This document shows positions 6,642 to 64,000 of a stretch of 64,000 nucleotides of DNA, one piece after another. Positions within the stretch are counted from its first letter, which is position 1, and every line of letters starts with the position of its first letter. A program made the position numbers and the translations under genes. Source of the DNA: Psammoneis japonica. Lineage: Eukaryota. The stretch spans positions 248,001 to 312,000 of the forward strand of contig QPGO01000069.1 in the NCBI GenBank assembly GCA_008632985.1. Reading direction: 5' to 3'. The notes under the pieces were generated by a model. That model saw only the letters and a program-made list of their open reading frames with translations, made no database searches and was not told the DNA's origin.

Positions 6642-7481
6642 NGCTGTGTTGTGGAAGGTGCTGATGAGCCTTCTCTCGAACGGTCTGGGGTGCAGCTCCG
6701 AAACCAGGTCAAAAAACAAAAGCAACAAACCGACGTCAAGGTTCAGTGGGCGTGGCAGAGGAGCATCTATGACAGGAGGCATGGTGACAACCTTTCTCAG
6801 GATGACCATTCCCAAGCAGAACCTTGTCTGTCTGGAGGTGATTGAGACTCACCCAGAGCCCAGCGGAACCAATCGGAGCCAACAACAAGTGTCAAGATGA
6901 ACCGCAGCAACATGTGAAGGAGGATGCAGCTGATGGAGTGCAGGCAGAGAAGGTGCCGGCATGCAAAGTGGCAGCATGGCTGTTGACAAGGCACCAGTTT
7001 TGAAGGTCTAACAGTGATGAACACAGTGAGCATTTGCCAAAAGCACGTTGCTGCCTGCCTCCATTTTGGCAACATGCAAAAACAGCATGTTGTGCATCAC
7101 ATGTAGAATTCAAACGGCGAGAGTGGCCTCTTGTGGAATTGTACATGATGACCCAGTCCTGGAAAATAGAGTGGTGTCCAAGTCACATGCACCATTTGAA
7201 ACCTTGCCAAGTCGCCTGCAAACAAATGCCAATTCGCTGACCTCTCCAACTTGAAACTAAAAAACTGTGAAAGCATGCCTGCCATCCAATTGTTGTCAGG
7301 TTTCTAATTTACAGAGAGCTGCATGATGTGTCTGTGTGTTCTAAAGATTAGACTGCACTCGAGAGCCAACCAAGAGGCACCATTCATGTCCATTGATGTG
7401 TCGTCCATCAGCAGGCCGTGGTTGCGTGGGTTTCCTGGTCCGCCGTCATCCGTCATCCATTGTGTTCCTTCCAAAGCAAAA

Positions 7482-7968
7482 GCAATGACAGTGTCAACAG
7501 TGACTGCAGCAGCAAGGGCAGGATTGACAGTGTCGGGCATGCCAGGGGGCCAAAACGCAGGTGCGGCGTTGGAATTCGTGATGGCATCTGTGGGAGGCGG
7601 TGGGGCGAGAATGAAAGAAGTGTGAGTCATTGGCATTTCATTGTGGACGTCGCTGGCAAAATGCAATGACAGCATCAACAATGCCTGCGGAAGTGAGGGC
7701 AGGATTAACAGCATCGGGCATGCCAGGGGGCCGAAACGCAGGTGCGGCGTTGGAATTCGTGACAGCATCTGTGGGAGGCGGTGGGGCGAGAATGAAAGAA
7801 GTGTGAGTTGTTGGCATTTCATTGTGGACGTCATTGGCAAAATGCAATGACAGCATCAACATCACCTGCGGCAGTGAGGGCAGGAGTGACAGTGTCGGGC
7901 ATGCCAGGGGGCCGAAACGCAGGTGCGGCGTTGGAATTCATGATGGCATCTGTGGGAGGCGGTGGAGC
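7482..7968. repeat. Tandem repeat, 181-bp unit, about 2.7 copies
   Basis: Units start with gcaatgacag at 7482, 7663 and 7844 and share gggcatgccagggggcc..aaacgcaggtgcggcgttggaattc. Confidence 0.9.
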
Positions 7969-8994
7969 GTGCAAACAACAGTGTGAGTTTGTGGCATCTT
8001 ATTTTGCACGTGTCACACCCACGAGAACCGGAACAATGACATCACCTGTTGCATCAGTGTTGTTGGCAACGGTGTCAGTGGGATCGGCATCCTGGGAAGG
8101 CGATGGGAAGAACCACGAGGCATATCATGGTTGAGTCGACGAAACGCGTGTTTTTTGTGCGGAGAAAAAGAGCTCCCGAAGTGCGCTTCCGACCCTCGGT
8201 TTTGGTGGTTAGAGTTTTAGGGGAGCTGTGGAACAGGAATTTTCACTTGTGGAACACACACACTCGTGTGGATGTCAACATTAAAACTCAACGCATGGCA
8301 AAGCCGTGCACGCACAACCACGCACACACACACAGCTCCCCTGCCACAGGGGTGGTGTCATTCCTTTCTGTTCTTTCCCTGCATGGAGATGCGCTCATTG
8401 TGGATTGGCATCGTCAAGGTTGACTGGAGACTCCTCTGGACCAGAGCAATTGGTGTGCAGGCAAGACATGGCACAGCAACCCCAATCGATGCACCCATCA
8501 AACAAAAACCAGGGGTCTCTCTCTTGCACATCAGAGACTCCTCATGAGGCATGACAAAGACAAAATCCCAACCGCCGTCTCAAACGGGATTTGAAATCTC
8601 TTTGACCAACACTCTCCATGACAGCACAGCTTTGGCATTGCAAGTGGGCAGTGCAGTCTGCACCAATGTTTAAAAACAAGAGGAGCCTTGCCTTGCAGCA
8701 CAAAGGCCAGCCAATCATTTCTTGTTGTGTGCGACCCTGTGGCTGGTTGGGCAGCCCAGCTGAGGCGTTGCTTCTTTTTTGCTTTTTCCAAGAGATGGGG
8801 GGGGGGGGGTGGAAGAAGAGGAATGGGTCGCTGTGCTCATGCCATGACAACCACACAAAAACACAAATCTGCTTCAATCAAAAGCAGGCTGTGGTGGGTG
8901 GGGGCAGATTGACAAGGCTCTGAGTGTCAGCCGAAGAAGCTCGCCCTTGTTCTCTGTCTCTTTCTTCAGCTTTTAGAGAGGCATCTTGCATTCT

Positions 8995-9214
8995 NNNNNN
9001 NNNNNNNNNNNNNNNNNNNNNNNNNNNNNNNNNNNNNNNNNNNNNNNNNNNNNNNNNNNNNNNNNNNNNNNNNNNNNNNNNNNNNNNNNNNNNNNNNNNN
9101 NNNNNNNNNNNNNNNNNNNNNNNNNNNNNNNNNNNNNNNNNNNNNNNNNNNNNNNNNNNNNNNNNNNNNNNNNNNNNNNNNNNNNNNNNNNNNNNNNNNN
9201 NNNNNNNNNNNNNN
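8995..9214. other. Assembly gap (N run)
   Basis: Run of n. Confidence 0.99.

Positions 9215-9282
<68 letters not shown>
9215..9282. repeat. (TG)n microsatellite abutting the gap
   Basis: Perfect tg repeat. Confidence 0.97.
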
Positions 9283-9285
<3 letters not shown>

Positions 9286-9899
9286 AGGGCTTTCCACCCA
9301 GAAAAACTTTGTCAAGACTCTCGGCAAGCACTGGCCTGCCGGGGAAATTCTGAATTTTCCAAAGCATGGACCCAAAGAAGTGGGCTGCAAAGTCAAACCA
9401 ATGGGCAGCCCAAGTTGCCTGTGTGCTGCAGTCAAAAACAAGCTTGTTCACTTGAAGGAAACAGATGTGACATTTTTGCCAGCTGTGCCAAGATCTGGCG
9501 GCTTTGTGGTGCACAGCTGTTCTGCAGACAGGCACTCTCTTTGCTTCCTTGCCCAGAGCTGAGTCAGCATGATTTTCAACACCATTTGCAACCCAGCAGT
9601 CAACAAGCACTCTTGTTTGGGAGGGTTGTTGTTGACAAAGGGCATCAGCCCCACTGCCAATTTCCTCTGGGGCATGTGCAGCTCCTCCTGGTTTGGATCA
9701 TTCAATGCATTTTCAACAGTGCACAGAGAGATTGGAAGCGATGCTCAGCAACTTGGTGTCTCCAACAAATGCTGGCAATTGTGACAAGAAGAAGCTTGCT
9801 CTCTTCTCACCAGATGCTCAAGCTCTGCAGGCAGACAGAGCAGAGTGAAAAGTGTGCTGCCTTGTTCAAGATCTGAGACAGAGGTGGGTGCTTCTTGCA

Positions 9900-12800
9900 A
9901 CACATTCACACATGATCGGACTGAAATTCTCTGCCAAGTGCTGACCATCGTCTGGTGATTTGTCAATCTCCACATTCAACTTTGACACCAAAAAACCACG
10001 CACCACCATGGCATTCGAGACGCAGTGTGCTCTGCCACTCTGCAGCTGTGAAGAGTTTGCTCACATTACGTTGTGAAGTTGTTCTGTGCACTGTGAAGTG
10101 CATTGTCATGGCTTGAAATTTTGATTTAAGGTGAAATGTCATCACGAGCATTGCAGCCAAAGTGATGGATGATTTGCAAGTCAAAATTTTGATCTCATGC
10201 ACAACCGATCTCCAGTCGAAGTTGTTGAAGCTGGATTTGAATGACGCCAAGTCATTGTTGAAGGTTTGCCCTGATGTGTCAAAGTCAGGGGCTTCTGTGG
10301 TGCTTCCCAAATGAGTTGTTGGATGCTCCAGCAACTTCAGAATCATTGACAGAAAAATCACTGATCACATTTTGCTCGGGAAGCAGCGCCAAGATTTCGA
10401 GCAGCAAAAATTCAAGAATGCACAGCGTTGGGAGAGGGAAGAATGCAAAAAAAAACACAAAGTGTTTGATGGAGCAAAAGAAACAACTTGGAGCAAAATT
10501 GACAGCATTGAGCAACAAAGATGCCACTCAGCAATCGAGTCCAGAGCAGACCCCTCCTGCACATTTTGTCACACCTCCACCCGCCAATTCCAGTTGCCCA
10601 TCAACTGGCAGAGCTCCACTGCAGAAGATGCCATGGAAGCAGAAGGGAGCATCCCAGCTCTCAGCAATGGCTCAACCCTGTCAGCTGCACCCACTGCTGG
10701 GAAGGAAACGGACGACACCAAGACACAAATCGCCAAGTTTGTTCGGGAGCTCAATGAGGCTTTTTTGTAGATGGCAGCACACATGACAACCCCAGTCAAA
10801 TCAGGAAGTGCAGCCCACATCCCTCTTGAGTGCTCCACATTGTGAATGAGAATGCAGGCCTTTTTTCCAGTGAGGAAAAGTGATGAGAGCTTGTCAGTGG
10901 TGGGGGTGTCAAGCCGCAGAAGAAGAAGCACAAAAGCGGAGCCAATGCACAGTTGGTTCATCAACAAGTGGACAAACAATCAATGGGAATGATGCATTCT
11001 TTGCTCTTGAGAGTTGCAAAGTTTGTTGACACAGTCTGGCATCCCGACCCATCAAATCGACAACCAGGTGTCCATGTTGTGCATTTTGTGTTTGGTGAGT
11101 TGTGCCAAACAACCTGCCAACGGCGGGCAACCCGCTTGCAACCAGTCTCAAAAGCCATTTCTTTACCTGCTGGCATCATCAAAGGAAGGAGTAAAAAAGT
11201 GCATGATGGCATGCTTGAATGCATTTCAATCTTCCAATCAAGAAGAGAGAGAAAAGCATGTTCTCGCTGCTCCATTCACAGGTGACAAGTTGAAGGACCC
11301 GGGTTCGAATCTTGCTGCAGAGATTTCAAGCCACATTGGCAAAAACTTTGTCAAGCGCCAAGGGCCAAAGACAAAGTCTTGCTTGCACAGTGATGTCCAG
11401 GTGGATGACTCGATGGATGACAAGCAATCAGATGAGGAAGATTGATCGACCTCATCCATTGGCAGCAGCGATCTTTGTTGCACCAGAACAATGCTTGCAG
11501 TGGTCACCTCATGCTGCAGACATCATTTGACATGTGCTGTTCCCAAATCAGTGTGCTGGAAAATCATTGAGACTGCTGGCTTGGCCCTCAAGGTGAAAAT
11601 GCCACAAGACCTGTGCAGCTTCCCTCTGAAGTCTGTGTTTGCCCGACATCATCGACAATGTCCATCCCCTCAGATGAGCTGAACAGCATTTCCTTTTCAC
11701 CAAAGTCCTTCCTTGCTTTGGCACTGTTGAATGTGTGCAGATCATGATTCAATTCTTCTTGCAAACTTGGGAGGAACCCTTGGTTGCAGTCCCTTGCCCA
11801 GCTCTCTTGAAGTGCCTCAATTGCATGCTCCAGCTGGGGTCAAGCTCCATTGGCTTCTTTCTGGCCTTGACAACAACACCTGTCAAAAAGGTCTTGCTCT
11901 GCATTCCTCCCCACTTTTTGGCACCATCTGGTGCAATTTTCCAAACTGTCTTTGACTTCTTGACACTTTTGCAAAACTCTTTGTCGATTTTCCCTTCCTT
12001 GCAGTGCTCATTGAGCTCCCCCTTGAGCTTCCCAATTTCTCCCACTGCATCCACTGCCAAACAGACCCCCTTCTCCAACAAATGCGTTCAATGGACACAG
12101 AATGCTTCTTGTTGAGATCAAACTGAGTGCTTTCCGCGTTCTTCAGTGAATCTGGCACCAAAAGGTCAACACCATCCTTTCCCTTGGGTTGCCTTGGATC
12201 ATTCAGATCTTCCACATTTGTGCAAAAACAATCACAGAAATCTTGGTCAATGTTCTTGGAGCGACTCAATCCAAAGCAAGCATCCGCATTGAGTGGGGTG
12301 CCAGATGGGCTGACACACTCCCCAACCAAAATGGGCTCCCATTCTCCAGGTTGTCCATCTGGGTGCCATTCCACGCAAGGGATTGCCGGGACTTTCCGGA
12401 CTGGGCCCTCCACAACGAGATTCAAGTCTTTGACACTCAGCAATGTCTCACAAAAAACCTTGTCAATGAGGGCCAGTTTCTTCATCTTGCCCCTGTGTTG
12501 CTTTGTTGCCCCCTTGATGATGAGACACTGGTTCAGTGTCAGTGCCATCGTTCGGCACTGGATGTGAGGATGGTTCAGGATGGCCCCATTGACGAAGTGG
12601 CCAAAACAATGCCGTTTGTCCCAAATTGTCCATCCCACAAATCTGTTGGCATGAATGAACTTCCCGGAAATTGTCTTTTGAAACAAGATTGCTTTCTCAA
12701 TGAGCTTCTTTCTTGCCAGTGATGCACACCACCAGTCAGTGAAAAAGTCGGCAATTGGTGACATGCACCCAGTGTGATGAGAAAGCACAAAACATGCAAA

Positions 12801-15245
12801 GCCACCAGTTTCAAGGTGTGCAGAAATGGTGACATGGAAGCTGCTGCCTCGGCTGACTTCAGCATCTGCATGACATGAAAGAGATGGAGCCATGCCATCG
12901 TCAAAACAATCATTGGGTGATCCACAGCTTGCTCAAGCATGTGATCAAGAACATCCACAGCAGTGATCTTGACAGCTTCATCTTCATCTGTCACCAAGCA
13001 TTTCTTCTCAATGCACTTTCATGTTGCAGAGAGGCAAACGGCACTCACCATTGCACTTGTCTCTCTCAGAACTGCGCCCGGGTCACCAGGACTCAACACC
13101 CAGTTTAGCTGGGCTTCTGAGGTTTGCCACAACGAAAAGACATCAATCAAAAACGCACCACCAAAGAGCCGCCTGATGGCTTTCCAGCAAGTCAGCATTG
13201 CATGGAAGCCCCCAAGAACAACAATCAACCCCATGAGTCAGAACGACTCCTTCAAACAACACAATTTGAATGAATTGATGCATGGGTTGCCATCCCAGCC
13301 AAACGTGACTGGAAAATCTTCATGAAGAATCCAGCACTCGAGAGGAGTTGTTGAGAATTGCATTGTGCTTTTCCTCTCCCATGTCCACAATGTTTCAAGG
13401 GTGCTGTCATTGGAAAAATTGGTGTCAAGTGGTGGTTCCATGGTCACTTTGTCAACCGAAAGGAAAGTTGATGTTTCTCCGTGTGGATCATTGTCACTTT
13501 CATCATTGACATCCCCGACATCGTGCCAATCAACTGTCATGGACGTGTCATCAAAGTGCAGTCTTGAATCAAAGTTTTCAATGACCACCCATGACATTGC
13601 TTCATTCCAATGTGGAATGCCCAGCCAATCAAATTCTGCAGCATGCAACATGATGTGCACATCATGCTCTGTCGGCCATTGTTTTTCTTGTTTGCACTCT
13701 GTGACCGACCAGATGCCCCCCCAACTGCATTGTTGCCAGGCATTCCTTGTCAGATTCATCAACACCTTTTGTTCCATCACAGCCAGCAAAATCTTCATGT
13801 TTTCTTTCCTCTTCCAGATCATGCTCTGGCTCCCGGCTGAGGACCTCCTTGTTGGGATTCTCAGGGTTGTGGTGCAGTCCATTCACAGTCGCTTGTTCAT
13901 TGTCATGCAAAGAGTCACTTGTTGCATTGTTTGGACATGTCCAACATCATTCTTTTTCCCACCTCAAACTTTGTGCCCACAGTTGTCTTGTTGGTTGGCG
14001 AGACAGTCGTGCTTGGATGATTTGGAGAAATCAAACCCTTCCAGAATCTTTTGGTCTGCAAGTTTCTTGTTCCCTTGCCTCACTGTTTGTTTCATTGTGG
14101 CTAGACCAAAGCCAGCAAGAAGTGATGAGATGTTGTCAGGCACTGCTTGTGCAGCCAAATGCGAGCCAACAAGGGATTGAATGATGCCAGCACTGGAATG
14201 CAAGCCGCGCACACTCCGCGCAACATCTGTCATGACAAACACCTTCTTGAACAGTCTGTTCCATTGCCGACTGTCCTCCAACTCCAATCTCTTTTCTTTC
14301 TCTGCTTCTTTTCTTGTGCTTCCATGAGAGAGACAGAACATGAAGTTGTGCAGAAAACTGTTGTCCTGACTTTGCAAGCTCTGCAAGTGCTCGCTCTGCA
14401 GGATGCGCGGTCGGGTTGCATTTCCGTGCAGCACTGGAGTTGTTTCTAATCAGAACCAAGTGAAGACGCTTCACCAGCTTGAAAAAATGACTTTGATTGC
14501 TCTCTCCCATTTCAGAAGGATCATCTTTTGGAGTGGCAACAGTCTGCAGGTCCAGCTTCCCATTGCCTTTCCATCCTGCCAAGGAAAGACCAACCAAATT
14601 TGTTTGGTGCTTGAGTGCCATTTCAAAATGTCAAACAAAGTCCTTCTTCTTGCCAGGAAGCACCATTTCATGTTCAGATTCTTTTGTTTGAGCACATGCT
14701 CTTCTGTGTCTGCTTGCATGCATTTAAGAGACTTGCACCAATGCATGGAGCAAAGTCGGGTGCAACTTGGACACATGAGCTTGTTCTGTTTCCCAAGACC
14801 AGTGCATGCTTCCGCAAAGCACTCAGCACAAACTTGATGTCTGGAGGAGCAAGAGAGCATAAAATGTGCGCTGCCTCCCTCGGGCATCCATTCATTGCAA
14901 CTTCAGCACTCAAAACCTGGCATTTCAGTTGCCACAGGCTGATCATGTTGATGACACTTAACATCGGAAGAATTTCGTGACACCTTTAGAGAGTGACGTT
15001 TTTGCCTTCCACGGCCACTCATTTCAAACAGAAACAACGTGAACAGATGCAACGAACAGTGCTTGATGATGCTGCCAAGTGTCAGGTGCCAGATCATTGC
15101 AGTTGCAGAGTGGTGGAGCACTGCGTCTTGCACGCCATGGTGGTGCATCATTTTTTGGTGTCAAAGTTGAATGTGGAGATTGACAAATCACTGGACGGTG
15201 GTCAGCACTTGGTGGAGATTTTCAGTCCGTTCACAGATGAACATG
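9900..15245 (-). mobile_element. Decayed DNA-transposon-like element with ~130-150 bp inverted repeats and a broken large minus-strand ORF
   Basis: 9917-10048 is the reverse complement of 15100-15229 (core gtgatttgtcaatctccacattcaactttgacaccaaaaaa). Internal minus-strand fragments include a RING-like C..H..C..C...CPSC near 14750-14890 and a transposase-like FGWDGNP...IVVLGGFH segment near 13190-13310. Confidence 0.6.
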
Positions 15246-15372
15246 GGCAAAAGCCACTTGTCAGTTGTGACAGTGGCTCCGTCAAATGGCGCATGTTTTG
15301 CAACACATGAGCAAAAGCCACTTGTCAGTTGTGACAGCGGCTCTGTCAAACAATGCATGTCAGCAGCACATG
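15242..15372. repeat. Tandem duplication, ~64-bp unit
   Basis: catg(g/a)gcaaaagccacttgtcagttgtgacag occurs at 15242 and 15306. Confidence 0.85.
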
Positions 15373-17078
15373 CAGGGAAAGATTTGCTTCAAACCCAAAA
15401 CAGGGAGAAATGCTGGTTGTGCATGCCTGGGTGGTCTGACACAGCAGGATGGCACACTCTCAGAGCACGCACCCCCAAGGAAGGTTTTTGCATCCAAAGT
15501 CAATTGAAAACAGCTTTTCAACTCTTCAAAATTTCACCCAAGTGTGCATCCAAACAAGGACCTGCATGGGGAGCTTCTCAGCTGGGGAGGAGCAGGGGAG
15601 GTTTTCCAGTTTTTGAAAGAGAAAACCCATCAGTGCATGCCGGGAGGTCTGTGAACTCTGAAACACTTTGAGCCTTGTTGCACCCTGTGCATTCTTGTCT
15701 GCTCCAGAGAAAAGCCTGCCATGGCACAGCTTGTCATGCGCTGTTCTGACTTTTTGTCTGTCACACAACTTTTTCTTTGCTGTGTTGTGTTGTTGTCTCT
15801 CTCTTTGCACAGAGAGAAAAGTGTTGTTTGTGACAATGGTGGGTCAGCATCTTGTCTGTGCTTGCAGCATCAAGTGGAAGAGTGCAGTGGCTCAACACAG
15901 AGGTTTTCAAGAAGCAGTGGATTTTTTGCCTGGCTTTGTGAGAAAAATGCACTCCAGAAGCCCCCCCCCCCATCAAGACCATCCAAGAAGGAAGTGCTGA
16001 AGAAAAGAAAAAAAGAAAAGAAAAAAAGCCATGCTTGTGCATGGGTGAGCTGCTCAGAGTGTGCAGAAGAGCGATGCTGTGTGTGTGACAGTGTGGGGTG
16101 TGCCAATGCCGCTTCTCTTCTCCAGCCACCATGGCTTGAAGACTGTCCGCAGCTCCAGAACTGAGCAGCAGCAAAGGGGGCAGGAGAGAGACATGTGCTG
16201 TTTCAAGCATGATTTTCATGCTGGCACTCATGCTCCAGGGGGTTGACCACTCAGGAAAGGCCAGTTGAAAAATGCATTTTTGATGGAGCTGGTGCAAGTG
16301 TGAGCCGCTCTCTTCACAAATGGCCACAGCATCACATTGACGTGCTGACAATGCCAAAAGCACAAAATGCAGAGCACCACCAACTTTGAGTCAAGTTCCC
16401 CAGCAACATTGACTGTGCAACACAAAAACAGCCAACCAAAGGTGCTTGTTGGTGGGAGGCAGGACAAGTCAGCAGGGTCATGAGCTGACAAGGGCAGCCC
16501 CAATTGTGGGCACATTCCAAACATGATTTTGCATTGATCGATTCAAGAATCAGACACAAGGAGTTTCTTGATGTGTTTCAGCTCCTGACAATGCAAAGTG
16601 TGCCAGCAGCCTTGAAATGTGCAGAGAATGAAATGACTGGGGTTCTTGCTGGGAAACACGCAATGAGGAAGATGGAGAACATCAGAAGGAAACAGGCTGT
16701 CAGATGGCGGTTTAGATCCAGGCTCCTTGAAAATCAGTTCCTTGAATTTGGTTAGAGATGCCATTGCGTGCGGGCATTCATCGAGATCACGTTGCATGTT
16801 AGAAGAGAAAAGACTTGAGCTCCTCTTGAATTGTCCAAAGTTTCTGACGTCGGTCACCGCTACAATGAATCTACGGTAGGAGTTGATTGCGACATTGCAA
16901 TGTTTCTTCATTCTTTGCGGCACCAATTTCGAGAGTCGCTACTCTAGGTCGCTGACAAGCTGCTTATGATATATGTATGGTTAAAATTCACGGGCTAAGA
17001 CCGCGAGTCGGCTTACACTTGCCATACGGCTTAGATTAAACGGGCTAAACAACGAAAAAAGAGAATCACCACTAGGAA

Positions 17079-48474: not shown

Positions 48475-48485
48475 TGGCTCTGACA
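48475..48485 (-). other. Primer-binding site resembling the tRNA-iMet complement (TGTCAGAGCCA versus canonical TATCAGAGCCA)
   Basis: Lies 3 nt inside the 5' LTR and matches the TGGTATCAGAGC family except for a TA>TG change and the missing TGG. Confidence 0.6.
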
Positions 48486-48488
48486 AAG

Positions 48489-54604: not shown

Positions 54605-54744
54605 TACGTAGGAATGACTTCCTTTTATGTAAAATATAAATACTTTTATTCAACGATATAATATAAACATTAACTACGAAGTAAGTAGTCTCACGTGTTC
54701 CCACGTGATCGACTCACTCCGCGGCCGCTCCCAGTTCTCCTCGC

Positions 54745-55690
54745 AGTTCACAAGGACACCATGCGCGAAGTGAAGCAAGAAGTAGCCGATCGAAAAGCTA
54801 TAGCGCACGGGGAGACCCTTAAAACGATCCTCAGGACCCCACCTGACCTCCAGGCCAGAGCTGTCAAGCGCAGCACCAAGACTGGCGCGTGGCTTTCAGC
54901 ACACCCTTCGACACTGAATGGCGCGGAACTCTCGTGCCAAGAGTTCCATGACGCGCTCTTCCTGCGGCACAGCCACACTCCACCCAACCTCCCGCAGCAC
55001 TGCAATGGATGTGGATGCAAGTTTACGATGAACCACGCCCTTCAGTGCAAGAAGGGCAGCCCAGTCATCTCACAACACGATGAAGTGTCCGTGACAACCT
55101 GGGTGGCCCAGTGGGCAAGGCTTGCAAACCTTCCTGTGCACGCGACAAACCCCTGATCAACCCCACCGGTTGCAGCACAGGAAGCTCAAGCACCCCCACC
55201 AGTTCTCCAGGAAACACTGACTCCAACAAGTCTGAGGAGATGGCAATCGCGGGGACCTTCTCTGCATGCAATTTTGGGACAGAAGGACAGACATGGTGAT
55301 GGACATTGCATCCCTGCCCTGACCGGACGCAAAGTCACACCCATCCAAAACACCAGAAGAAGTTCTGGCAAGCCACAAATGTGAAAAAAAGTGTGAGTGC
55401 CTCAAGCCCTGTCTTGAGCAGCACCATCATTTTGCGCCCTTCGCAGTGTCATGTGACGGACTTTTCAGCAAGGAAGCCAAGGCAATGCTCTGCAAGATGG
55501 CATCGATGCCATCAGACAAATGGCAAAAGCCACACTCTGAAGCATGCGGCCACATCAATGCAAGAATGAGCATTGCCACAGTCCGGGCAACCCACTGTTG
55601 CCTCAGGGGATCCCATGTTCCCGCCTCTCAGATCAGCTCCAGACGACCCCAGTGGGAAGATGGCGCCGGTCTGTCCCCACACAGACACCA
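54745..55690 (+). mobile_element. 3' fragment of an RLE-type (CRE-like) non-LTR retrotransposon, degenerate
   Basis: TGAWLS..PSTLNG.ELS.QEF.DAL.LR, C.GCG.KF...HAL.CKKG zinc knuckle, RGDL-like endonuclease region, DGL..KEAK, ARMSIA.VRATH.CLRGS. Confidence 0.85.
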
Positions 55691-55799
55691 AAGGACCCCA
55701 ATCCAATCAACCCCCACCCTTCCTGACAGCACACCAACTGACTGTCCACCAACACCACCAATGTCATGCCCAGAAGATGACAAAAACCTGCCACCACAC

Positions 55800-58700
55800 T
55801 GAATGCGGCGCCACAATCAACTCAAATGTCGCGTGCACAGCCTGCGATTTGCGTGCAACAACTGCCCCTCACTCACATGACTGCATTGATGCTGCATTTT
55901 CTGTTGTCATGACAAGGAAGTGAGCCATGTTGCATCACTTTTTCTGCTCATGGAAGAGGGCAGATGGATTTGAAATGCTTGGAAGATTCAAAAAGCAGCA
56001 CAAGGAATCAACACCAAGTTTGTGCAGAAAGAGAGCAAGTCAACCCAAGTGTTCTTTGCAATCTGGTTGTCCCCAACTTCATTGCCTTGGGAACTTTTTT
56101 GCTTTCACTGCAGCTGACAAAAATCAGTTGTTTGGGTGCTGGTGCATCAGCACAGCAGAAACTCTGACAGGGGGCTGGCCCACACACTCCCAGCACACCG
56201 GTGCTGTTGATGCAGTTTGGGAGGGGATGTCCAGGACAGGCCAGAACTGGTGTGCCATCATCAGATGAAGCCTGCCCAAAACAACTGGTTGTTGCTCTTG
56301 CAACTTGCACACAGCATTCCAGGCAGCTGGGTTGGCACTGTCCTTCAATGCAGGGTTGCAGCATGACAGCCATCTGCACAGATGGTGAGCAGAGTTTGTC
56401 AAGTGGTCTTCCACTTGACTGGTGAGTGTGATTGTTCTTTGCTTGCATTCATCTCTTCATTTGCAGATCACTCAAATTTGGTCTTTCACATCCTGTCAAC
56501 ATGCCTGTTGTCTCATTTGTTGATTGTCATGCCCATGCATGGCTGTGCTGCATTTGTCCCAAAGATCTTGCCACTTCACCCAAACACACTGGTCCATCCT
56601 TTGTGTGTGGTGACTGCAAAGCTGAGGCCACAGGCCGTGTCATCAAAAATGACACTGCACCTGCAAGCTGAGGTGTTGCCAACTGACTTTTTCTTGAGAG
56701 TCTGCAAACTTGGGCTGCATGAGAAGATGATGCCAGCACAAGTGCAGAATTTCATCACCCAAACACACCAGTCCATGGCAAATGCACCCCAGCTGCGCTC
56801 CTTTGTGTGTGGAGACTGCAGCAAAGCTGAGGCCACAGGCCAAGTCATTGGAAATGACACTGCACATGAAAGCTGAGGTGTCTCCAACTAACTTTTTTTT
56901 AGAGTCTGCAACCTTCTTGAGCTTCATGAGGAGAGGAGATGCTGGCATGAACGCAGAATTTCATCACATGGTTGCTGCTCTCCTGGGTGGCTGGGTGGCC
57001 AACAGAAGAGCAAGCTCTGAGTGGCAGCAGCATGTTGCACAGATCATCTCACACAACTCTTCTTGTGGTGGAGACCTTGGAGAGAGACAAACAGCACCAG
57101 CTGGAGTTGTGCATGCACTGGACCATGCCTGCCCCATCTGTTTGAAGGAGAACAGCAGAGTGCACAACAAGGCATGGGAGGGCAGTTTGAGGTGACAACA
57201 ACAATGCCATGGGCTGGCACAGCAAGGCTGTCAAAATGGCGATCATGATGACAAAGCACAGACCAGCCATTGGGTCTGCCACCACTGTGATGTTGTGGAA
57301 ACACCCTCTGCATCAGAAGAATCAGGATGAGCCATGAGGATTGTGCACTTTGTGCTGGCTGCTCTGCTTCTTGTGCATGCCACTCTTTTCATTTTGCCCT
57401 TGTTTGTCATCAGAGGTGGAGACAATTTAGCTGGGGCTCACTCAAATCATGTGGGTCAAATCTGATGTTTCCACACAGGTTTGACCTGAATTGTGGCCTG
57501 CTGGGTCATGGTTCATTGCAGTTTGGGTGAGCCACACTGGTGTGCCAAATTTTTCATGCAGCTGTGCCTGTCATTTCCTGTTGTCACACCACACAAATGA
57601 CAACCACACTCATGACATTGATGCATTGTTGCATTGCAGCAAACTTTCATTTCATGTTTTTGATGCGTGCTCCCATTTTTTAATGCATTTTCTCTGCCAG
57701 TGTTCAACCATCCAAATGTTGTTTCACATGGTGAATGTCTTTGCCAAAACAAATGTCATTGCGCTGCTGTCATTGATGCATCTGCAAACCACATTTCCCC
57801 TGTTAATTGATGTCATCATCATCCTCCATTGGCACTGCATTGTCCATCACTTGCTTCTTTTCTGTCAACACATTCCCAGAATTGCTTGGACCACAGTTCA
57901 CTGCATTGCTCTGCATCCTTGCTCATCCTCTTTGTGTGTGTCTCCTTTTCCAATTCTTGGCACCTGTCAGTCCTTGTTTGTTCCAACCTTGGCCACTCTT
58001 TTTTGCCTTTTGTCCTTTTCCAGTGCTGTGCTGCACTTCACTGTTGTGCGAGCCTCTGTTCCTGCAGCTTTTCCTTTGCTTTCCCATGCACATGCACCCA
58101 CTTTTTCCAGATGTTCTCCAACATCAGCAGACCAAATGCCTTGTCACTTCCCCATGCCAACTTGTTCAAGCAACACCTTGATTGGAGAGCCAATGTTTCT
58201 GCAATGTCTTCCCAATGACAATGGGCAGGAAGTGGCAGGTGCAGCAGCTGTGTGCCTCCATGGCATTCCTTCCCTCCAGCATGTCCTCCAAGGATGGCAT
58301 GTTTTCATTGTCATGATTCAGCCTGCCTGTTTGTCCACAAAACACATCAACGTGACCTGGGTCAGTGTTTGTTGTCTGTGCTGTTTGCAGTTTCCCCTGC
58401 AGCAATGCTTGCTGAAGAATTCCTTCTTGTTCTCCACAGGCATTGTTCCTCTTTCTTGTTGCTTGTCTTCTCACCTTGTCCTTTGACATGTTCCATGTCT
58501 GCGTCCTGTTTCTGTCCAGCATGTTTGGCTGGACAAAACAGTCTCAACCTCCCTTTCATTGCTGATGGTGTCTTGTGGCCTTGTTGTTCAGAAACTTGCG
58601 CCAATGGAAAAGCACATTCTTGTAGCCAGCAGCTCTCCATGTCCCTGTCATTCATTTTGTCATTGCACCCTTTTTTCTTTCACTTGCCACTCATTGTGTC

Positions 58701-61700
58701 TTCTCCTTCATGTTAAGAGCAGATGCAGACAGAGTCACATTCATCACGACTGACCCCCCGTTGGTTTCCTGCACCATCATCAACACGGGTGCCTCCATCT
58801 CTGTCTCTTGCACTCCCCCTGTCATGCGTGTTTGCTTTGCAGTCCATTGCATGCTGCTGTCAGTGAGCACAATGCAAGCTCTGTTGGCACTTTACACTGT
58901 TGCTTGCATCTTCTCTAACAGGGCTTTGGAGTGGCTGGTTTTGTTGTCTGACAGTTCCTGTGCACAGGGGCATGGTGCAGTTGTGTGTTTTGGTGGTTTC
59001 TGGAGAAGCAAGACTTTTGTTCTGGGATGCACTGCAATCACAGTGCCAGGTGCTGCAATTCTGCACATGTGCACCTGGCAGCCATGTGCTGGATCCTGCT
59101 GTCTTCTGCACCCCTTCTGCAATTTAAAATTCTGGCTAGCATTGTGGCTGGTGGCCTGTTTTTTTTTCAAAACCAAGCTCTGATGCACAGTTGATTGAAG
59201 ATTCAAACACCATGTCTGTCTTTCCATCACACGTCAGGTCACTGCACCCTTTTTTCATGCACAAATCTGTGGTTTGTTTGAGTCACGGTGAGGTGGCTGC
59301 TCCCAATTCATTCAGCTGGACTGCTGCTTTGATCCAGGGCATTTGACTTGCTTCATCACCCCATCTGGCAGTCTGGGGAAACTGACCCCTCTGTTGGAGT
59401 GATCTGAGTGTCAATGTCATGCTCACTTGTTGCTTTGCAGCTGACATCCTGCAAACCAGAAGTGTGCAAGAAGGTTGTCAGAGCAGTCAAGCATGCCATT
59501 AAATGAGTGTGATGTGCCTTGCACACAATCCACAAAACACTCCACATGAGTGTGACAAAGCCTCTCTGTCACAGCTGGACTGTGCTGGCCTGGGATCAGG
59601 CCCACAATCATCCAACCATTGACCATCTCTCAAGTCAAATCAAAGAACCCATTCTGTGGCACAACCACTCACACACTGGCTTTGCAAGGTTGGTGTCTTG
59701 GTGGAAGAATGATGCCAACTTCATGGCTTTGCACACAATGCCATTAGCATCCATTGCAAGTCCATGTCAATTTGGCTCAACATTGGCAACATGACCACGC
59801 AGCTCACCTGCATGAGGGGACCGCACACCCCATGCTTGTTCATGCCATGTGCAGGTGATTGCAGCCTTGACTGTTTGCACAAGTCCATGGTGTCCTTCTT
59901 GTCTGGGGCCAACTGCAACATGTTGCCCCTCAATCAAGTGGTGCACTCATCCTTCATGTGCTCTTTGCTGTCTTTGTGTTGTCCATGCAACACACAACAA
60001 ACTTTGCCTTGCCACAAGGTTTGGTCTCCATGATGATTTCCCGAAATTCCTTGGCTTTGTGTGCTCGCCAAGCACACTTGCCAATCTCATGTGGCAGACT
60101 GTTGTCACTGTGGATGGAGAAGTGCAGTGGTGGAGATGTGCTCATGCACTTGAGGACTCCACAGTCCCTTGGTTGCTTGAACCCAGACTGCAAGTGCTTC
60201 AAAAGTGCCAGTCTGGAAAGCCAACACATGATTGGGTTGAGGTTGTCAAGAATTGCTGGGGTGGGGAATGCCACATTGTGGCCATGATGGTCCTTTGCCT
60301 CATGATGGAGATTGTGGGGGACAAGCTGGAGGAGCCACATGCCATGGTCTGTCAATGCAGTGGACTGCTGAAAAGTGATTCCAACAAGTTTGAGTCTTCC
60401 ATTGTGGAGTGCCAGCATGCAAAGACATGCATGTTGGGTGGAGACCCTGTTTTTCACCTTGTCAATCTTGACTGAATGACATTGAAAGTGTTGGTGTTCA
60501 AGGACATTTTCCATCCTTGAAGAAGGAACCATGGTGGGATGTTGTCACCAGAGAGAAGATGGGAGAGCCAGATTTTCCATTGTTGCAGGATGATCCACCA
60601 ACATTGTGCAAGGGTGTGAAGCCAAGATTGCACACATGGAGGCCACAAGAAACCCCAATCACCAAAAAACTCACCATGTCACAAGACTGGGTGTGTGCCA
60701 TTCTTTCACATGACAAATGGAGAAAAGAGTTCATGGAGACAACAGTGCAGCCAAACTGATCAACATGATGAGTGGTCAATGGAAAGCAACCAAATGGCGC
60801 CAGCAAAACCCAGCTGTCTTGTTCCAACAAGTTGGGATGACTTGGCCTTTTGAAAACAGCACTGCTGTCAAAAACTCACTTTTCAAACCATTGGTGCCAG
60901 AGGTGCAGACAAACTGGAATGTTGTTCTGGCATGGATCCAGAAGCTTGTTGAGGAAACAATTGTTGAAGTTGCTGACATGGCCATTGCCACAACATTCAG
61001 GGGAACAAATTCTTTTCAGTTCCGCCATCAAGATGTGATCTCCATTGCAAGGCATCACATGATGAAGGCCACCTTTCACTTCAGTCACCTTTCCTTCACA
61101 GCCTGCATGCATTGAAATGACAAGCAAACATGACCTCTTTGCAATGAAAAGATTCTGACTGATGTGTGTCATGTCAAAGAATTCATTGTCTGAGTGCTTG
61201 TTTTTCACAATGCAGTGGGATTTGCAAATGCAGTTTTCCCTGTCATGGTGTGCAACTGCTTCCCCACTTCAATTGGCAAAGGCAGCACACAGGGTTTTCA
61301 TGATGATCTCCACTGTTTCTTCCACAATGCTGTTTTGCCTTGGCTCAGAGGGAAGCATCAGAAACATCCACTCCTTCATTGCCTTGCTGGTTTTGGTGAT
61401 GTTGGCCAGGTTGATGAAACAAAAGGGAATGAATCAAATGGTTGCCTTCAACTCCATCACAGATTGGTCACACCAAGATCTTTGAAGTTCAGAATGAGAG
61501 GGGTCCTCGCAGAACATGCAGCCAGTGTGGCACTCTCCCATTTGAGAGTGGCAGGAATGCCCCAGTTCCTTGATGCCTTGCACTGACAGAACCACACCAG
61601 CCATTGAGAAACACTGTTCACACCAGATCTTTCAGCTTGAGAGGAAAAATTGATGACAATGCAGATGAAATCATGGCGAAAGTTTCCTCTTCTCTTTTTG

Positions 61701-64000
61701 AAGCTTGCAGTCAATCCATGATGGTTGATGCAACCAAATGGCCAGCATGGAATTTCCTCAGGTGAGTGGGTTTCAACTTCAATTGCTGTGTCCAACATGT
61801 GTGAAAATGGCGACAAAGTGGCAAGGCTGGGAATGTGCAAGTGCCCAAGCATGGAACAGCTGCACTGTGCCAAGGAAGGAAAGGCAGCAAGTTCAAAGAT
61901 GGCATTCACAGAGGAAAGCAAATGACCAAAAGCATCAAATTTGCACTTCATCTGCACTGCTTTAAAATTGGGGATGCACTTGTCAACCAGCGCGCTGGTT
62001 CTGAAGTGTTCCATGCTGACATGCTGATGCTTTTAGGAGACTGGGGAAGAGAGCTGCAAATGTCCCACACAGCATTGACATGTGGTGGACAAAAATGCTC
62101 TCCTCCACAACCTGTCTGTCATGCTCTTGACTCATGCATCCAATTGCAGCAGTGCACTGTGGCTCTCTGGCATTGCCAAAGGCACCCCAAGAGAGCAAAA
62201 CAATGTTTTTTTTTCATTTTTTCACAGAGCTGCTGGGCTTGTTGAAATGACTTTCCAAAAGATGCCAGCACACAACATCCAGGGTGGATCTTGTTGCGCC
62301 TTTCTTGGCAATGTTGTTGCTGGGGTGATTGTGGTTGAACAAAAATGCATCATCTGACTGCCAGTGAAGACCTTGAACTTGCTTGATCCAGTCAGAAACA
62401 AAACCAAATGCAGACAAAACTGTGGGATCCTCAACCAAGCACATGATGCCAATGCCAACACCATTGTGAGAATGTTTCCATCTGGTGCATTGACTCAAAT
62501 TTTTTTTTTTCATCATCCTTGTGCATGCCCAGCAATTGATGCTTGGTGAAACCAGAGGAGGAAGAAGACTTGGACACAGAAAAGGCATGACAACCATCCA
62601 ACTCTGTCAGATCATCAGCAGGTGTTTGGCTGGCTTTCCTGGAAAGAGCCCGGAAATCCAGATGATCAAGGATGGAATGACCAACATTGACAACATGGAA
62701 GCAATGATTGCCGTGGTCACTGTTGGTGAATGGACTTCAAAACTCAAGGCATTGCCAGTGTGATGGAAAGTGGCAATGGACTTTTCCATGTTCTTGGAGC
62801 AAGCCATCATGCAGCAACAATGCCTCCCGTCAATGCAAGTGGATGCCCAGCCAATGTCAAGATCAGGCAGCACCAAGTGAGTGCAAATGACATGCTGCAC
62901 TGCTGCTCTTGACTTGCCTTCCCCACATTGCACAATTCTGGTGCACTCTTCCAGAAGGCATCTTTGGGTTGCTTGCAGACCATGCCAACATTCTCAAGTC
63001 CTCTCCATTTGCTGGGCAATGATTTGGGGACAGAAGCAGAAGTCTTGGTGGAGACAAGAGAAGGAGCTGTTGCAGAAGATTGAGGCAGACTTTTTTGGAC
63101 TGGTGACCACTTGTTGGCCAAGGCCACTCGTGGGGACAGAGATGGCAGCAGAAATGTCAGAAGCACACCACACAGATGAAATGACATGCACAGGAAGCAG
63201 AGCTTGACTTGGAGCCAACAGAACAGTGAAAGGGAGTGACAAAGACATTGTCAGACCAGATGTGGCATTGAAAAATGAGGGTGGCACATTGAACAATTGA
63301 GCTGGAATGGCAGGAGAGGATGCACCCCCCACAGTGCAAGACATCAAGCTCAAATCAATGCAGGAAGAGACACAGTGGGACAAGGCACCAAATGCAAGGT
63401 TCCACCAAGCACACCTTCTCCTGATCTCTGCAAGATCCCAATCCCACAAAGAAGGATCCAGCTGTTGCACCAAAGCAATGTGTGGGTGCACAGTGGGAGC
63501 GGTCATGGACAGAGTTGTTTGAAGGCAACTGAGACAAGCAAACTGCACCGCTGACTGGGCAGGCATGGGATGAACCCTGGCATCATCATCAGAGAGCCAT
63601 TGAACCATCACAGTTAAAAGATGTCTTGTCTTCTCTGTCAAAGAGCTCAAGCCTGCTCTTTTTGCTGAAAAACACTCAAAATCTTTCCTCTGTCTGTCTG
63701 TGGTGTGATGGGTGAGCAAACAACATGGGAAAGTGACAACTCAGTGAGCTGGCCATGAGCAAGGCAAGGCAGATGGTGGCAAGTTCACTTTTGCTCCATT
63801 GTGGCTTCAACAGTTGACTTGCCAAGAAGAGAAAGGTCTGGGAGCACCAAAAGAGAAAATGCAAACTCAATCAAGAATGTGCAGTGCAGGCAAGCAAGGA
63901 AAAAGCTGTGAGGGCCCAGAAGACAACCTCCATTTCCAATGTCAATTTCTCATTGACAATCAGCAATGCCAATTTCTCAAGTGTTGAAAAACTTGAGGAG
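55800..64000. other. Heavily decayed repeat-like DNA, depleted of both TpA and CpG; family not identified
   Basis: Saturated with TG/CA, only Tyr-free spurious ORFs. Internal direct repeat at 56597-56710 / 56800-56914. Confidence 0.65.

Follow-up and report, generated by a model that had tools for sequence, protein, structure and literature searches.

TpA-specific A:T to G:C hypermutation as the probable origin of TA-poor blocks in putatively silent DNA of the diatom Psammoneis japonica

In a 64-kb stretch of the genome of the diatom Psammoneis japonica (the window, analysed over its whole length) five sharply bounded blocks have lost almost all of their TA dinucleotides. The best explanation, to which we assign a probability of roughly 0.85, is hypermutation of A:T to G:C specifically at TpA, acting in place on silent, gene-free DNA and accompanied by a slower decay of CpG, i.e. 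a process of the type described from Bigelowiella natans (Mettrop et al. 2026, bioRxiv 10.64898/2026.01.13.699255). The change is derived, proceeds from TA to TG or CA, is restricted to TA and is strand-symmetric.

Results

A per-kb dinucleotide table and a two-state segmentation on TA, applied across the window, gave TA-poor blocks at 2750-4699, 6132-16712, 38395-40971, 42533-51058 and 54821-64000, almost exactly where an earlier note on this DNA had placed its repeat blocks. N gaps occupy 6133-6642 and 8995-9214 within the second block. The gap-free block DNA amounts to 31,789 bp (31.8 kb) and contains 112 TA, compared with about 1,190 (1,191) expected at the normal rate; the normal DNA between the blocks has 1,168 TA in 31,186 bp. 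The observed/expected ratio of TA was 0.03-0.10 in the blocks and 0.54-0.70 between them, that of CG 0.14-0.58 (0.35 over all blocks) compared to approximately 1.0, and those of TG and CA 1.5-1.9 compared to approximately 1.1, while the G+C content was alike in both (0.46-0.52). Within the window these ratios bear out the claim of the earlier note that the blocks are saturated with TG and CA and that genes and their spacers have ordinary TA usage. In the pooled blocks TA had a ratio of 0.06, and AA (1.23), TT (1.21) and AT (0.87) were close to normal. For 55.8-64 kb, where 15-20 TA had been estimated by eye, 16 were counted; 559 would be expected from base composition and 308 from the rate in the normal regions.

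The loss of TA is confined to particular regions amid an ordinary genome. At every block edge the number of TA per 100 bp drops from 3-14 to 0 in one bin, i.e. the boundaries are no wider than 100 bp, and they cut through a Ycf48 fragment, an LTR and an element tail, not at the ends of these units. Block 1 (2750-4699; 8 TA, TA ratio 0.07, CG ratio 0.35) is a mosaic of decayed host-gene fragments. Block 2, counted over 6643-16712 with its N gap at 8995-9214 (30 TA, TA ratio 0.05, CG ratio 0.34), gave no Pfam match and no recognisable protein domain; it contains an inverted repeat pair (9913-10048 and 15100-15233, 87 % identity) with CA/TG doublet differences. Block 3 (38395-40971; 12 TA, TA ratio 0.06, CG ratio 0.30) and the start of the minus-strand frame at 34654-38232 are separated by 163 bp. 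The fourth block comprises the interior of a copia element, described below, and a part at 48536-51058 with the outer part of an LTR and its flank, mostly near single copy, in which CG falls to 1-13 per 500 bp. Block 5 (54821-64000; 17 TA, TA ratio 0.03, CG ratio 0.14) continues past the end of the window. Its first ~0.9 kb are the tail of a high-copy unclassified element and the remainder is near single copy up to 61000, where the stretch covered by the contigs ends.

The direction of change could be read from the minus-strand element at 42213-48712, which its sequence identifies as a Ty1/copia LTR retrotransposon, with two direct LTRs, gag, and an integrase followed by a reverse transcriptase. 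Its 3' LTR (42213-42440, 228 bp), at which the depth steps up to high copy, is not hypermutated, and this LTR and the adjoining 92 bp have retained all 13 TA. The 3' LTR is a 92 % identical direct repeat of the 5' LTR (48486-48712, 227 bp), the outer 177 bp of which are hypermutated: three of three TA sites were retained in the inner 50 bp and none of ten in the remainder. These inner 50 bp and the leader form a little-mutated island (48241-48535, minus strand) with 6 TA in 295 bp. Between the LTRs, 10 of 13 TA sites differed (five to TG and five to CA), compared with 2 of 9 sites at CG and 1 of 181 at the other aligned positions; the 13 substitutions are accordingly ten A>G or T>C at TA, two at CG and one other. 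As both LTRs are expected to be identical at integration, these differences give the direction TA to TG or CA, and TA was lost faster than CG (10/13 compared to 2/9). No matching target-site duplication of 3-6 bp was found at the LTR ends; one of the flanks is hypermutated.

The copia interior (42533-48240, minus strand) has a TA ratio of 0.12 and a CG ratio of 0.69. Pol (approximately 46598-42634) is collinear with amino acids 20-1348 of a related protein, P0158, and relatives of about 1,350 amino acids carry rve followed by RVT_2. The Gag frame (48228-46771) has 32 full-length relatives, among which weak matches to Retrotran_gag_2 were obtained. Of the 42 tyrosines of P0158 in the Pol alignment, two were kept, ten had become His and nine Cys; 21 of the 40 changed ones had become other residues, the alignment also holding ordinary divergence. 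The Gag frame contains no Tyr, compared with a mean of 2.1 % in the 32 relatives. Ordinary divergence is present here too; 41 of 50 differences are other than single steps at TA or CG, and two of five conserved tyrosines had become Glu or Val. Eighty related copia loci had TA ratios of 0.49-0.95 (median 0.68), compared with 0.12 for the copy in the window. They were sought with a 5-sequence Pol alignment, in which one pattern needs Tyr and the other allows Phe or Tyr, so that hypermutated relatives would mostly be overlooked. Part of the TA loss in the interior may already have been present in the source copy.

The mutational signature was consistent across the blocks. The loss of TA and CG (7.22 % of dinucleotides) is balanced by the gain of TG and CA (7.37 %). 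TG and CA counts were nearly equal in six of the seven blocks compared, and the gains in the copia interior were 518 and 522, respectively. Along the blocks the order of TG and CA was random (runs-test z from -2.1 to +0.6), and a strand-processive action was rejected on these tests. Among paralogous TA-poor copies, 22 of 39 adjacent double mismatches were exchanges between CA and TG. With the ancestral NTAN usage of the blocks approximated by that of neighbouring genes, the survival of TA fitted a model of independent strands, with a per-strand escape of 0.06, 0.18, 0.42 and 0.76 when the 3' base was T, C, G and A, respectively. The effect of context was strong (chi-square p = 1e-24; odds ratio 18.6 for YTAR vs RTAY), and the preference T-A-T > T-A-C > T-A-G > T-A-A spans a 12-fold range. 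Survival of CG per strand varied only weakly with the 5' base (0.52-0.73). The erasure of TA is distinct from this weaker, context-poor decay of CpG. A single 5'-T-preferring deaminase causing both losses, for which the TCG preference of BjADAT2 had been the lead, was rejected because the survival of CG barely depends on the 5' base. The core proposal of the earlier note, a strand-symmetric A:T to G:C process at TpA in silent DNA that differs from 5-methylcytosine decay and runs opposite to fungal RIP, is supported by the LTR pair, the mass balance, the context and the equality of the strands.

Loss of TA also reaches host-gene remnants. A Ycf48/HCF136 pseudogene fragment (2658-3240, minus strand; tblastn with P0004, amino acids 208-401) carries two in-frame stops and straddles the block edge at 2750. 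All four of its conserved tyrosines inside the block were lost, three of them to His, and both of those outside were kept; 15 of the 28 differences in the protein do not correspond to one step at TA or CG, ordinary divergence also being present. Block 1 matched the Pfam families PSII_BNR/Ycf48 (5e-16) and PGP_phosphatase (7e-10), the latter (PF09419, 7.3e-10, residues 9-65) in a plus-strand frame without Tyr at 3284-3940. A plus-strand formamidase pseudogene, found by tblastn with P0001-P0003, has its 5' piece (42097-42211) in normal DNA and a second piece (48716-48847, 79-83 % identity to P0001 and P0002) in TA-poor DNA, where QVHCLSGPIE replaces the QVHYLSGPIE of three relatives (Tyr to Cys).

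Over 260 block frames of at least 70 amino acids, Pfam found fragments of Ycf48, PGP phosphatase and formamidase only, in addition to a marginal match to rve_3 (E = 0.039). Read-through frames of 9913-15233 and of 61000-64000 (minus strand only for the latter) matched no Pfam family. The identified targets are copia, the high-copy element tail and host pseudogene pieces, and about 20 kb of the block DNA has no recognisable origin. The region 54689-55153 in the element tail resembles what we take to be a retroelement C-terminal Cys motif, with LRH in place of LRY. From the catalogue of elements given in the earlier note, copia was substantiated by LTRs, Gag and Pol relatives; for the non-LTR, Penelope-like and TIR elements no domain (reverse transcriptase, endonuclease or transposase) was found in the 260 frames searched.

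Independent contigs were obtained by De Bruijn assembly of a raw public run with a word depth of about 66-fold; this run may be the source of the genome assembly itself. A contig of 6,742 nt matched 55804-61000 with three differing letters and another of 1,954 nt matched 48932-50890 with none, so the TA-free text, for which the earlier note had proposed a check in raw reads, is reproduced in contigs of what is possibly the source run. The summed contig depth of unique DNA was about 60 (48-67). It was at near single-copy level over 49005-51005 (75-106) and over 55.8-61.0 kb (66-208 for both regions taken together), compared with 1,400-3,200 over the copia interior (42533-48240) and 1,058-2,111 over 54341-55674, beyond which it fell to 66-221. 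Of two other runs, one placed nothing on this DNA and the other only five pieces. The two near single-copy regions, 49005-51005 and 55804-61000, are as free of TA as the high-copy parts. Variation among copies in the run comprised 1,002 transition places and 195 transversion places.

Discussion

The hypermutation probably arose in situ, to judge from the CA/TG exchanges between paralogous copies, from the pseudogene pieces and near single-copy DNA that are affected and from the edges that lie inside homology units. The blocks would be putatively silent, gene-free DNA of several kinds: a young copia element, the tail of an unclassified high-copy element, dead pieces of host genes, and old DNA whose copy number is today close to one. 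On DNA already in the chromosome, A:T would be converted to G:C at TpA, and the strand on which A was changed would decide whether TA became TG or CA, probably by separate events on either strand. An ordinary, slower decay of CpG to TpG or CpA would be overlaid on this erasure. The agent could be a DNA adenine deaminase of the TadA/ADAT kind, forming inosine that is read as G, or some other enzyme with a requirement for T on the 5' side. Recruitment would presumably be by a domain marked by chromatin or small RNAs and not by repeats as such, and a plausible role is the disabling of invading DNA. ADAT2/ADAT3 and TadA deaminate A to inosine, and their target in tRNA, A34, follows a conserved U33 and thereby lies in a T-A step.

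The earlier note had described the process as restricted to repeats. This restriction is not supported: stretches near single copy are as TA-free as the high-copy parts, pieces of host pseudogenes are mutated too, and one LTR of a high-copy copia element was spared. It is nevertheless conceivable, if unlikely, that homology is recognised as in RIP, that repeats are mutated, and that the affected unique DNA is leakage or consists of old repeats that have diverged too far. The two best-identified segments are indeed high-copy (1,400-3,200 and 1,058-2,111, compared with about 60 for unique DNA), and block 1 contains duplicates of host genes, of which intact versions must be present elsewhere. Moreover, copies would come to differ by about 10 % through hypermutation alone, so that DNA which is single copy at 80 % likeness or more is compatible with old repeats. 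RIP-like targeting fits poorly, however, with the 228-bp 3' LTR of a high-copy family, which together with 92 bp keeps all 13 TA while its twin lost ten, and with the fully TA-free DNA at near single-copy depth, which spans at least 5.2 kb at 55804-61000 and about 2 kb at 49005-51005. The edges, furthermore, cut the Ycf48 fragment, the LTR and the element tail instead of tracking their ends, and the main target in B. natans is reported as single copy (bioRxiv 10.64898/2026.01.13.699255).

The spared 3' LTR and the leader beside the 5' LTR, next to a heavily mutated copia interior, could also suggest that the RNA or cDNA of the element was edited during the retrotransposition cycle, before integration, by an ADAR-like or APOBEC-like enzyme. 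Editing of cDNA spares regions that become double-stranded early, as in APOBEC3G gradients. Such editing marks one strand, whereas in the copia interior TG and CA were gained to the same extent (518 and 522), the changes of Tyr to His (10) and Cys (9) are balanced as well, and host gene fragments and flank are mutated contiguously with the outer part of the LTR. ADARs, to our knowledge, occur only in animals, and we regard pre-integration editing as very improbable. Error-prone repair synthesis in silent chromatin by a polymerase of the Pol eta type, which the earlier note had offered as an alternative, is equally improbable. Pol eta is prone to A>G errors at WA motifs, TA among them, but AA is not depleted (1.23 in the blocks, 1.16 outside) when TA is depleted about tenfold, and a near-complete conversion of TA with only 1 of 181 other LTR sites changed is unexpected from the resynthesis of patches. 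TA and CG are both palindromic YR steps that could bear a symmetric modification, and modified bases in silent DNA might have been miscalled as transitions in sequencing or assembly; the sole confirming run may be the assembly's own data, with a platform that is not on record. We consider an artefact still less probable. The De Bruijn contigs of the raw run (~66-fold word depth) show the same text, the coding consequences match long-dead genes with stops and indels, and the surviving TA obey a lawful context pattern; miscalling by strand majority does not fit, as TG and CA outcomes alternate randomly within 200 bp. Least probable of all is a native or selected composition, i.e. foreign DNA that always avoided TA. 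TA is under-represented in the genes here too (ratio about 0.56), but Gag-Pol, Ycf48 and formamidase frames without Tyr cannot be functional designs, the LTR twins differ from each other, and 80 copia relatives have normal TA.

Hypermutation in place at TpA would have consequences beyond this locus. The one report of natural DNA adenine hypermutation known to us is a 2026 preprint on a single organism (bioRxiv 10.64898/2026.01.13.699255), and a second, distant host with a saturated footprint argues for a widespread process and not the curiosity of one alga. Candidate genes can be narrowed down by contrasting genomes with and without the footprint. Any enzyme proposed would have to require T on the 5' side, favour T>C>G>A on the 3' side, act on the two strands independently and be targeted to domains, apparently regardless of copy number. 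In the annotation of diatom genomes, those Tyr-free, TGA-only "open frames" that lie in such blocks should be read as relics, and the transposon content is underestimated by domain searches. Base editing, too, could profit from a natural, context-defined DNA adenine deaminase. More tentatively, and with the odds somewhat against it, we suggest that erasure of TpA is an ancient, chromatin-directed defence across SAR (stramenopiles and rhizarians), in which a candidate deaminase would read 5'-T-A-Y-3' on either strand of silenced DNA independently of repeats, spread from invaders into host flanks, and shape gene death and base composition in diatoms.

The closest known system is that of B. natans, and the process in P. 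japonica would be the same as the one measured there in mutation-accumulation lines. According to the text of the preprint, A>G or T>C accounted for 230 of the 231 new mutations recorded in two integrated viral regions, all of these lay on TpA, and the genome contains 124 TpA-depleted clusters; reverse-transcriptase and DDE domains are enriched among the TpA-depleted genes, and an ADAT2-like DNA adenine deaminase was proposed (Mettrop et al. 2026, bioRxiv 10.64898/2026.01.13.699255). The earlier statement that no such system has been described in diatoms agrees with the literature found, subscription journals lying outside the search, but the process is not of a wholly new kind, since the same signature is described from B. 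natans in that preprint. As far as its text goes, both systems have A:T to G:C changes confined to TpA, both TpG and CpA as products, a regional distribution, and long-term depletion of TpA with a gain of CpA and TpG; a copia element is affected here, next to host pseudogene pieces, and reverse-transcriptase and DDE domains are enriched there. The host, however, is here a diatom (stramenopile) and there a chlorarachniophyte (rhizarian); the loss is here near-saturated (TA ratio 0.03-0.12), compared with a reported 0.45 in the NCLDV region of B. natans; and the verified targets are here a retrotransposon, fragments of dead host genes and DNA close to single copy, where the preprint describes giant-virus and virophage inserts. 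CpG decay accompanies the loss of TA here, whereas the main text of the preprint makes no mention of CpG. The ranking of 3' neighbours (T>C>G>A) appears to be new, the words context, trinucleotide and flanking being absent from the same main text. The rate in B. natans was, by that account, measured in living lines, and in P. japonica the process is known from its footprint alone.

As in the RIP of ascomycete fungi, regional, near-saturating transitions kill mobile elements, leave a sharp-edged dinucleotide footprint and can reach neighbouring DNA. RIP, however, changes C to T mainly at CpA and creates TpA, whereas here A is changed to G at TpA, which destroys TpA and gains CpA. RIP also needs duplication and a sexual phase, whereas here one LTR of a repeat was spared and near single-copy DNA was mutated. 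The conversion of CG to TG or CA (CG ratio 0.14-0.69, weak effect of the flanks) is like the deamination of 5-methylcytosine, as expected of methylated silent DNA, but such deamination cannot remove TA, and the loss of TA is faster and varies 12-fold with context. In one related copia locus of different origin (L053), CG had decayed strongly (0.24) and TA was ordinary (0.60). Amphioxus BjADAT2 is reported to edit DNA and to mutate DNA in E. coli, with the contexts GAA for A and TCG for C (PMC10354150); these reported contexts differ from the T-A-Y found here, where CG is lost without a TCG preference. ADAR favours a 5' U, as cited in the B. natans preprint (bioRxiv 10.64898/2026.01.13.699255). 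Like APOBEC3 and ADAR in animals, the process would be a deaminase-driven hypermutation directed against mobile or viral nucleic acid, but these enzymes act on single-stranded cDNA or RNA and on one strand, whereas here both strands are affected equally, non-retroelement DNA is included, and the changes would have been made after integration.

Composition and contents of the TA-poor blocks

Dinucleotides were tabulated per kb, and the window was segmented into two states by its TA content only. Both delimited five TA-poor blocks, at 2750-4699, 6132-16712 (including N gaps, 6133-6642 and 8995-9214), 38395-40971, 42533-51058 and 54821-64000. They correspond closely to the five that an earlier note had picked out by eye, and its TA count for 55.8-64 kb was correct: 16 TA were found there, while 559 are expected from base composition. 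Within the blocks the observed/expected ratios were 0.03-0.10 for TA, 0.14-0.58 for CG and 1.5-1.9 for TG/CA, compared to 0.54-0.70, about 1.0 and about 1.1, respectively, in inter-block DNA of similar G+C. With the N gaps and one small island taken out, the 31,789 bp of block DNA contained 112 TA, compared to 1,191 expected at the rate of the adjacent 31,186 bp. The loss of TA and CG together amounts to 7.22 % of dinucleotides and is balanced by a gain of 7.37 % in TG and CA together. The borders are abrupt, TA per 100 bp dropping from 3-14 to 0 inside one bin.

The inter-block genes are ordinary eukaryotic ones, coding for a SET-domain protein, an ABC transporter, SepSecS, a P5A-ATPase, a PPR protein, a RING/PA protein, V-ATPase subunit C and a 5-phosphatase-like protein. 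The SepSecS (O-phosphoseryl-tRNA(Sec) selenium transferase) gene at 20815-21819 (- strand) means that the organism has selenocysteine machinery. A 543-codon open frame at 40230-41858 (+ strand), which matched no Pfam family, crosses from TA-poor to normal DNA, and its nine Tyr codons are all found from 40800 onward. With TGA as the sole stop codon left, TA-free DNA should contain long open frames by chance.

Self-comparison of the window revealed little internal repetition. When 260 frames of at least 70 aa from the blocks were searched against Pfam, no transposon domain was found, only three host-gene fragments. Copy number was estimated over 41001-61000 as the summed depth, at 80 % likeness or more, of contigs from X1, a public sequencing run whose contigs match the window. 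Unique genes gave about 48-67. The depth was 1,400-3,200 at 42.3-49.0 kb (a copia element and a short second repeat, 48836-49002) and 1,058-2,111 at 54.3-55.7 kb, the tail of an unclassified high-copy element, but 75-106 at 49.0-51.0 kb and 66-221 at 55.7-61.0 kb. Much of the TA-free DNA is thus near single copy at this likeness, and may include older, further-diverged repeats.

An inverted repeat pair of 136 bp (9913-10048 and 15100-15233, 87 % identical, 5.2 kb apart), whose differences include three CA/TG doublets, bounds a candidate TIR unit, and may be the termini of a DNA transposon that has decayed. Neither 9913-15233 nor 61000-64000 (- strand) matched a Pfam family, transposase domains included, even in frames read through stops. 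Tandem repeats occur inside the blocks at 7476-7969 (181 bp, 2.7 copies), 39825-40046 (111 bp, 2 copies) and 15241-15360 (64 bp, 1.9 copies), their copies differing largely by CA/TG doublets and CG<->TG/CA exchanges. A perfect (TG)34 microsatellite at 9215-9282 adjoins the N gap (8995-9214), of which it is the probable cause.

Direction of change

One comparison comes from a copia element. A 228-bp direct repeat has one copy in normal DNA (42213-42440, - strand) and the other in TA-poor DNA (48486-48712, - strand); the two are the 3' and 5' LTRs of a single insertion. Of the 13 TA sites in the 3' LTR, 10 are altered in the 5' LTR, five to TG and five to CA. Two of nine CG sites are changed, one to TG and one to CA, and only one of the remaining 181 aligned sites, apart from two short indels. 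Since LTRs are expected to be identical on integration, the changes in the 5' LTR post-date it and were made in the chromosome. No target-site duplication could be fixed at the LTR ends.

Homology searches identified 42213-48712 as a - strand LTR retrotransposon of the Ty1/copia type. For its Gag frame (46771-48228, - strand) 32 relatives were found over the full length, 30-67 % identical, and these show weak Retrotran_gag_2 and DUF7083 matches. Tyr averages 2.1 % in these relatives and is absent from the window frame, where three of five conserved Tyr columns have become Cys or His and two Glu or Val. At conserved Gag columns there are 50 differences, and a single TA or CG step explains just 9 of them, the relatives being distant. 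A 446-aa Pol frame gave 20,204 matches, the best being polyproteins of about 1,350 aa with rve and RVT_2 domains. The Pol region aligns to aa 20-1348 of one related polyprotein (P0158), and at its 42 aligned Tyr the window has 2 Tyr, 10 His, 9 Cys, 7 Phe and 14 other residues.

That the family is natively not TA-poor is shown by environmental contigs, in which 80 related copia loci have TA ratios of 0.49-0.95 (median 0.68, none below 0.3), compared to 0.12 for the window copy; one of the two search patterns demanded Tyr and the other allowed Phe or Tyr, so that the set is biased against hypermutated relatives. One of these loci (L053, from a metagenome contig) has a CG ratio of 0.24 with TG/CA at 1.5 and TA at 0.60, and thus CpG decay without TA loss occurs elsewhere.

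Dead host-gene pieces changed in the same direction. A 3' pseudogene fragment of Ycf48/HCF136 (3240 to 2658, - strand) straddles the block edge at 2750. Scoring used the columns conserved in at least 80 % of 120 homologues, of which the best are 74-79 % identical to it and three named ones were confirmed as diatoms. Inside the block all four conserved Tyr are gone (three to His by TAY>CAY, one to a stop), while both beyond the edge are retained; three of seven conserved Arg inside the block have become Cys or His. Among the 28 in-block differences, 7 are one TA step, 6 one CG step and 15 neither. The fragment stands back to back with a PGP-phosphatase-like fragment (+ strand), and 2658-3940 resembles a patchwork of host-gene pieces that were captured or duplicated; working copies of both genes must exist elsewhere in the genome.

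The copia insertion divides a formamidase (FmdA_AmdA) pseudogene into a piece in normal DNA (42097-42211) and one in TA-poor DNA (48716-48847). The latter has QVHCLSGPIE in place of the QVHYLSGPIE shared by the three relatives found. Its counterpart in normal DNA, with Trp>Gly within the conserved HNRWHPD motif, also looks dead. Only about 80 codons of the gene are detectable, the remaining 370 or so being absent from the window. The LTR pair, Ycf48, formamidase and copia Gag/Pol are four independent lines showing that TA was the ancestral state in the blocks.

Signature and targeting

TG and CA are about equally frequent in six blocks out of seven (e.g. 518/522 and 1,054/1,087), 48535-51058 being the exception (224/325), and their order along the DNA is random (runs-test z -2.1 to +0.6). 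The outcome at each TA was independent of its neighbours, and either strand could be hit. Paralogous TA-poor copies differ from each other by 39 adjacent double mismatches, and 22 of these belong to a single class, CA<->TG, among 72 possible. Among the 40 best-supported of about 1,200 differences between the window and X1 contigs, six rows are TG<->CA doublets and 17 are CG<->TG/CA; three have TA in the window and TG elsewhere, and one CA in the window and TA elsewhere. TpA was changed in place, copy by copy; part of the TA loss in the copia interior may have been inherited from an already mutated source copy and so not be private to the window copy.

Survival of TA depends on its flanks. With the NTAN usage of neighbouring genes as proxy for the ancestral usage of the blocks, TTAA, CTAA and TTAG were retained at 38-50 % of normal frequency, and ATAT, GTAT and ATAC at about 1 %. 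A strand-independent escape model using the 3' base alone (T 0.06, C 0.18, G 0.42, A 0.76) fits all 16 classes (chi-square p = 1e-24; YTAR vs RTAY odds ratio 18.6, p = 5e-21). The 5' base has little effect on CG survival (0.52-0.73), and CG loss ranges from mild (0.69, young copia interior) to severe (0.14, 54821-64000), while TA loss is near complete throughout. TA loss and CG loss are two separate processes, and the latter looks like ordinary decay of CpG, presumed to be methylated.

Block edges fall inside homology units: within the Ycf48 fragment, 92 bp into copia beside the intact 3' LTR, some 50 bp within the 5' LTR and some 100 bp within the tail of the high-copy element. They lie 160-1,200 bp away from adjacent long gene frames. 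Targeting is domain-like and includes near single-copy and host-derived DNA. The earlier note's label "repeat-restricted" is not supported, since near single-copy DNA and host pseudogene pieces are hit and the high-copy copia 3' LTR is spared, and of the several element classes it listed copia alone could be verified; the 260 frames and the read-through scans gave no transposon domain.

The copia interior and outer 5' LTR are hypermutated, unlike the 3' LTR, and a leader island is little mutated. The spared parts are 42213-42532 (3' LTR and 92 bp) and 48241-48535 (leader and inner 50 bp of the 5' LTR). By arithmetic from the fitted strand-escape model, chance retention of all three LTR TA sites in the island has P ~0.008. 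Transcription, protein binding or an already mutated interior inherited through retrotransposed RNA could account for the sparing.

Alternative explanations

The TA-poor text might be thought to consist of base-modification miscalls. X1 contained 90 % of sampled words from 51000-58000, and the TA-free text was reproduced by a 6,742-nt contig matching 55804-61000 with three letters different and by a 1,954-nt contig matching 48932-50890 with none. This excludes a polishing artefact but not every artefact, as X1, whose platform is not on record, is perhaps the assembly's own source. Against miscalls, TG and CA outcomes alternate randomly within 200 bp, the affected genes have stops and indels, and the remaining TA obey a lawful context rule. 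The three differences in 5.2 kb of near single-copy TA-poor DNA (57049, 58522 and 59138) are all A:T>G:C from assembly to contig, one at a surviving TA, and none occurred in 4.7 kb of normal single-copy DNA covered by contigs; they could be allelic or ongoing mutation, and are too few to call.

Among mutational processes, RIP acts in the direction opposite to TA>TG/CA. Editing of retroelement intermediates on one strand does not agree with changes that are symmetric and include host DNA. Error-prone synthesis of the Pol-eta type, which the earlier note had offered as a candidate, mutates WA; loss in the blocks is at TA only, with AA, TT and AT near normal, and this argues against it. The central proposal of that note, TpA-directed A:T>G:C hypermutation, was borne out by the LTR pair, the Tyr loss, the dinucleotide balance and the strand symmetry. 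We consider genuine in-place TpA-specific hypermutation the very probable explanation (about 0.85). The agent is perhaps a deaminase, for which we see roughly even odds. TadA/ADAT enzymes act on tRNA A34, directly after the conserved U33, and an enzyme of this type would, from that target, be an attractive candidate.

Comparison with known systems

Our full-text literature search returned one description of the TpA signature, from Bigelowiella natans, and none for diatoms. Mutation-accumulation lines of this chlorarachniophyte acquired 302 new substitutions, of which 231 were located in two integrated viral regions; A>G or T>C made up 230 of those 231 (Mettrop et al., bioRxiv 10.64898/2026.01.13.699255). 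According to its text every one of these GC-biased changes hit TpA, the rate being about 6e-7 per site per generation, in some lines only; the genome has 124 TpA-depleted, CpA+TpG-enriched clusters and 324 TpA-poor gene models enriched in reverse-transcriptase and DDE domains, and an ADAT2-like protein was proposed as the deaminase (same preprint). The DNA-editing ADAT2 of amphioxus is described as preferring GAA and TCG (PMC10354150), which does not fit the T-A-Y preference in the window. The main text of the B. natans preprint does not mention diatoms, stramenopiles, CpG, "context", "trinucleotide" or "flanking", although its supplements may hold flank data (bioRxiv 10.64898/2026.01.13.699255).

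As far as that main text describes the B. natans process, the process in the window agrees with it in every testable sequence-level defining feature, in a distant further host and with TpA loss at saturation. This kind of process is thus already described and the window is a new, distant example, which adds constraints in the flank hierarchy, the strand independence, the domain targeting and the separation from CpG decay.
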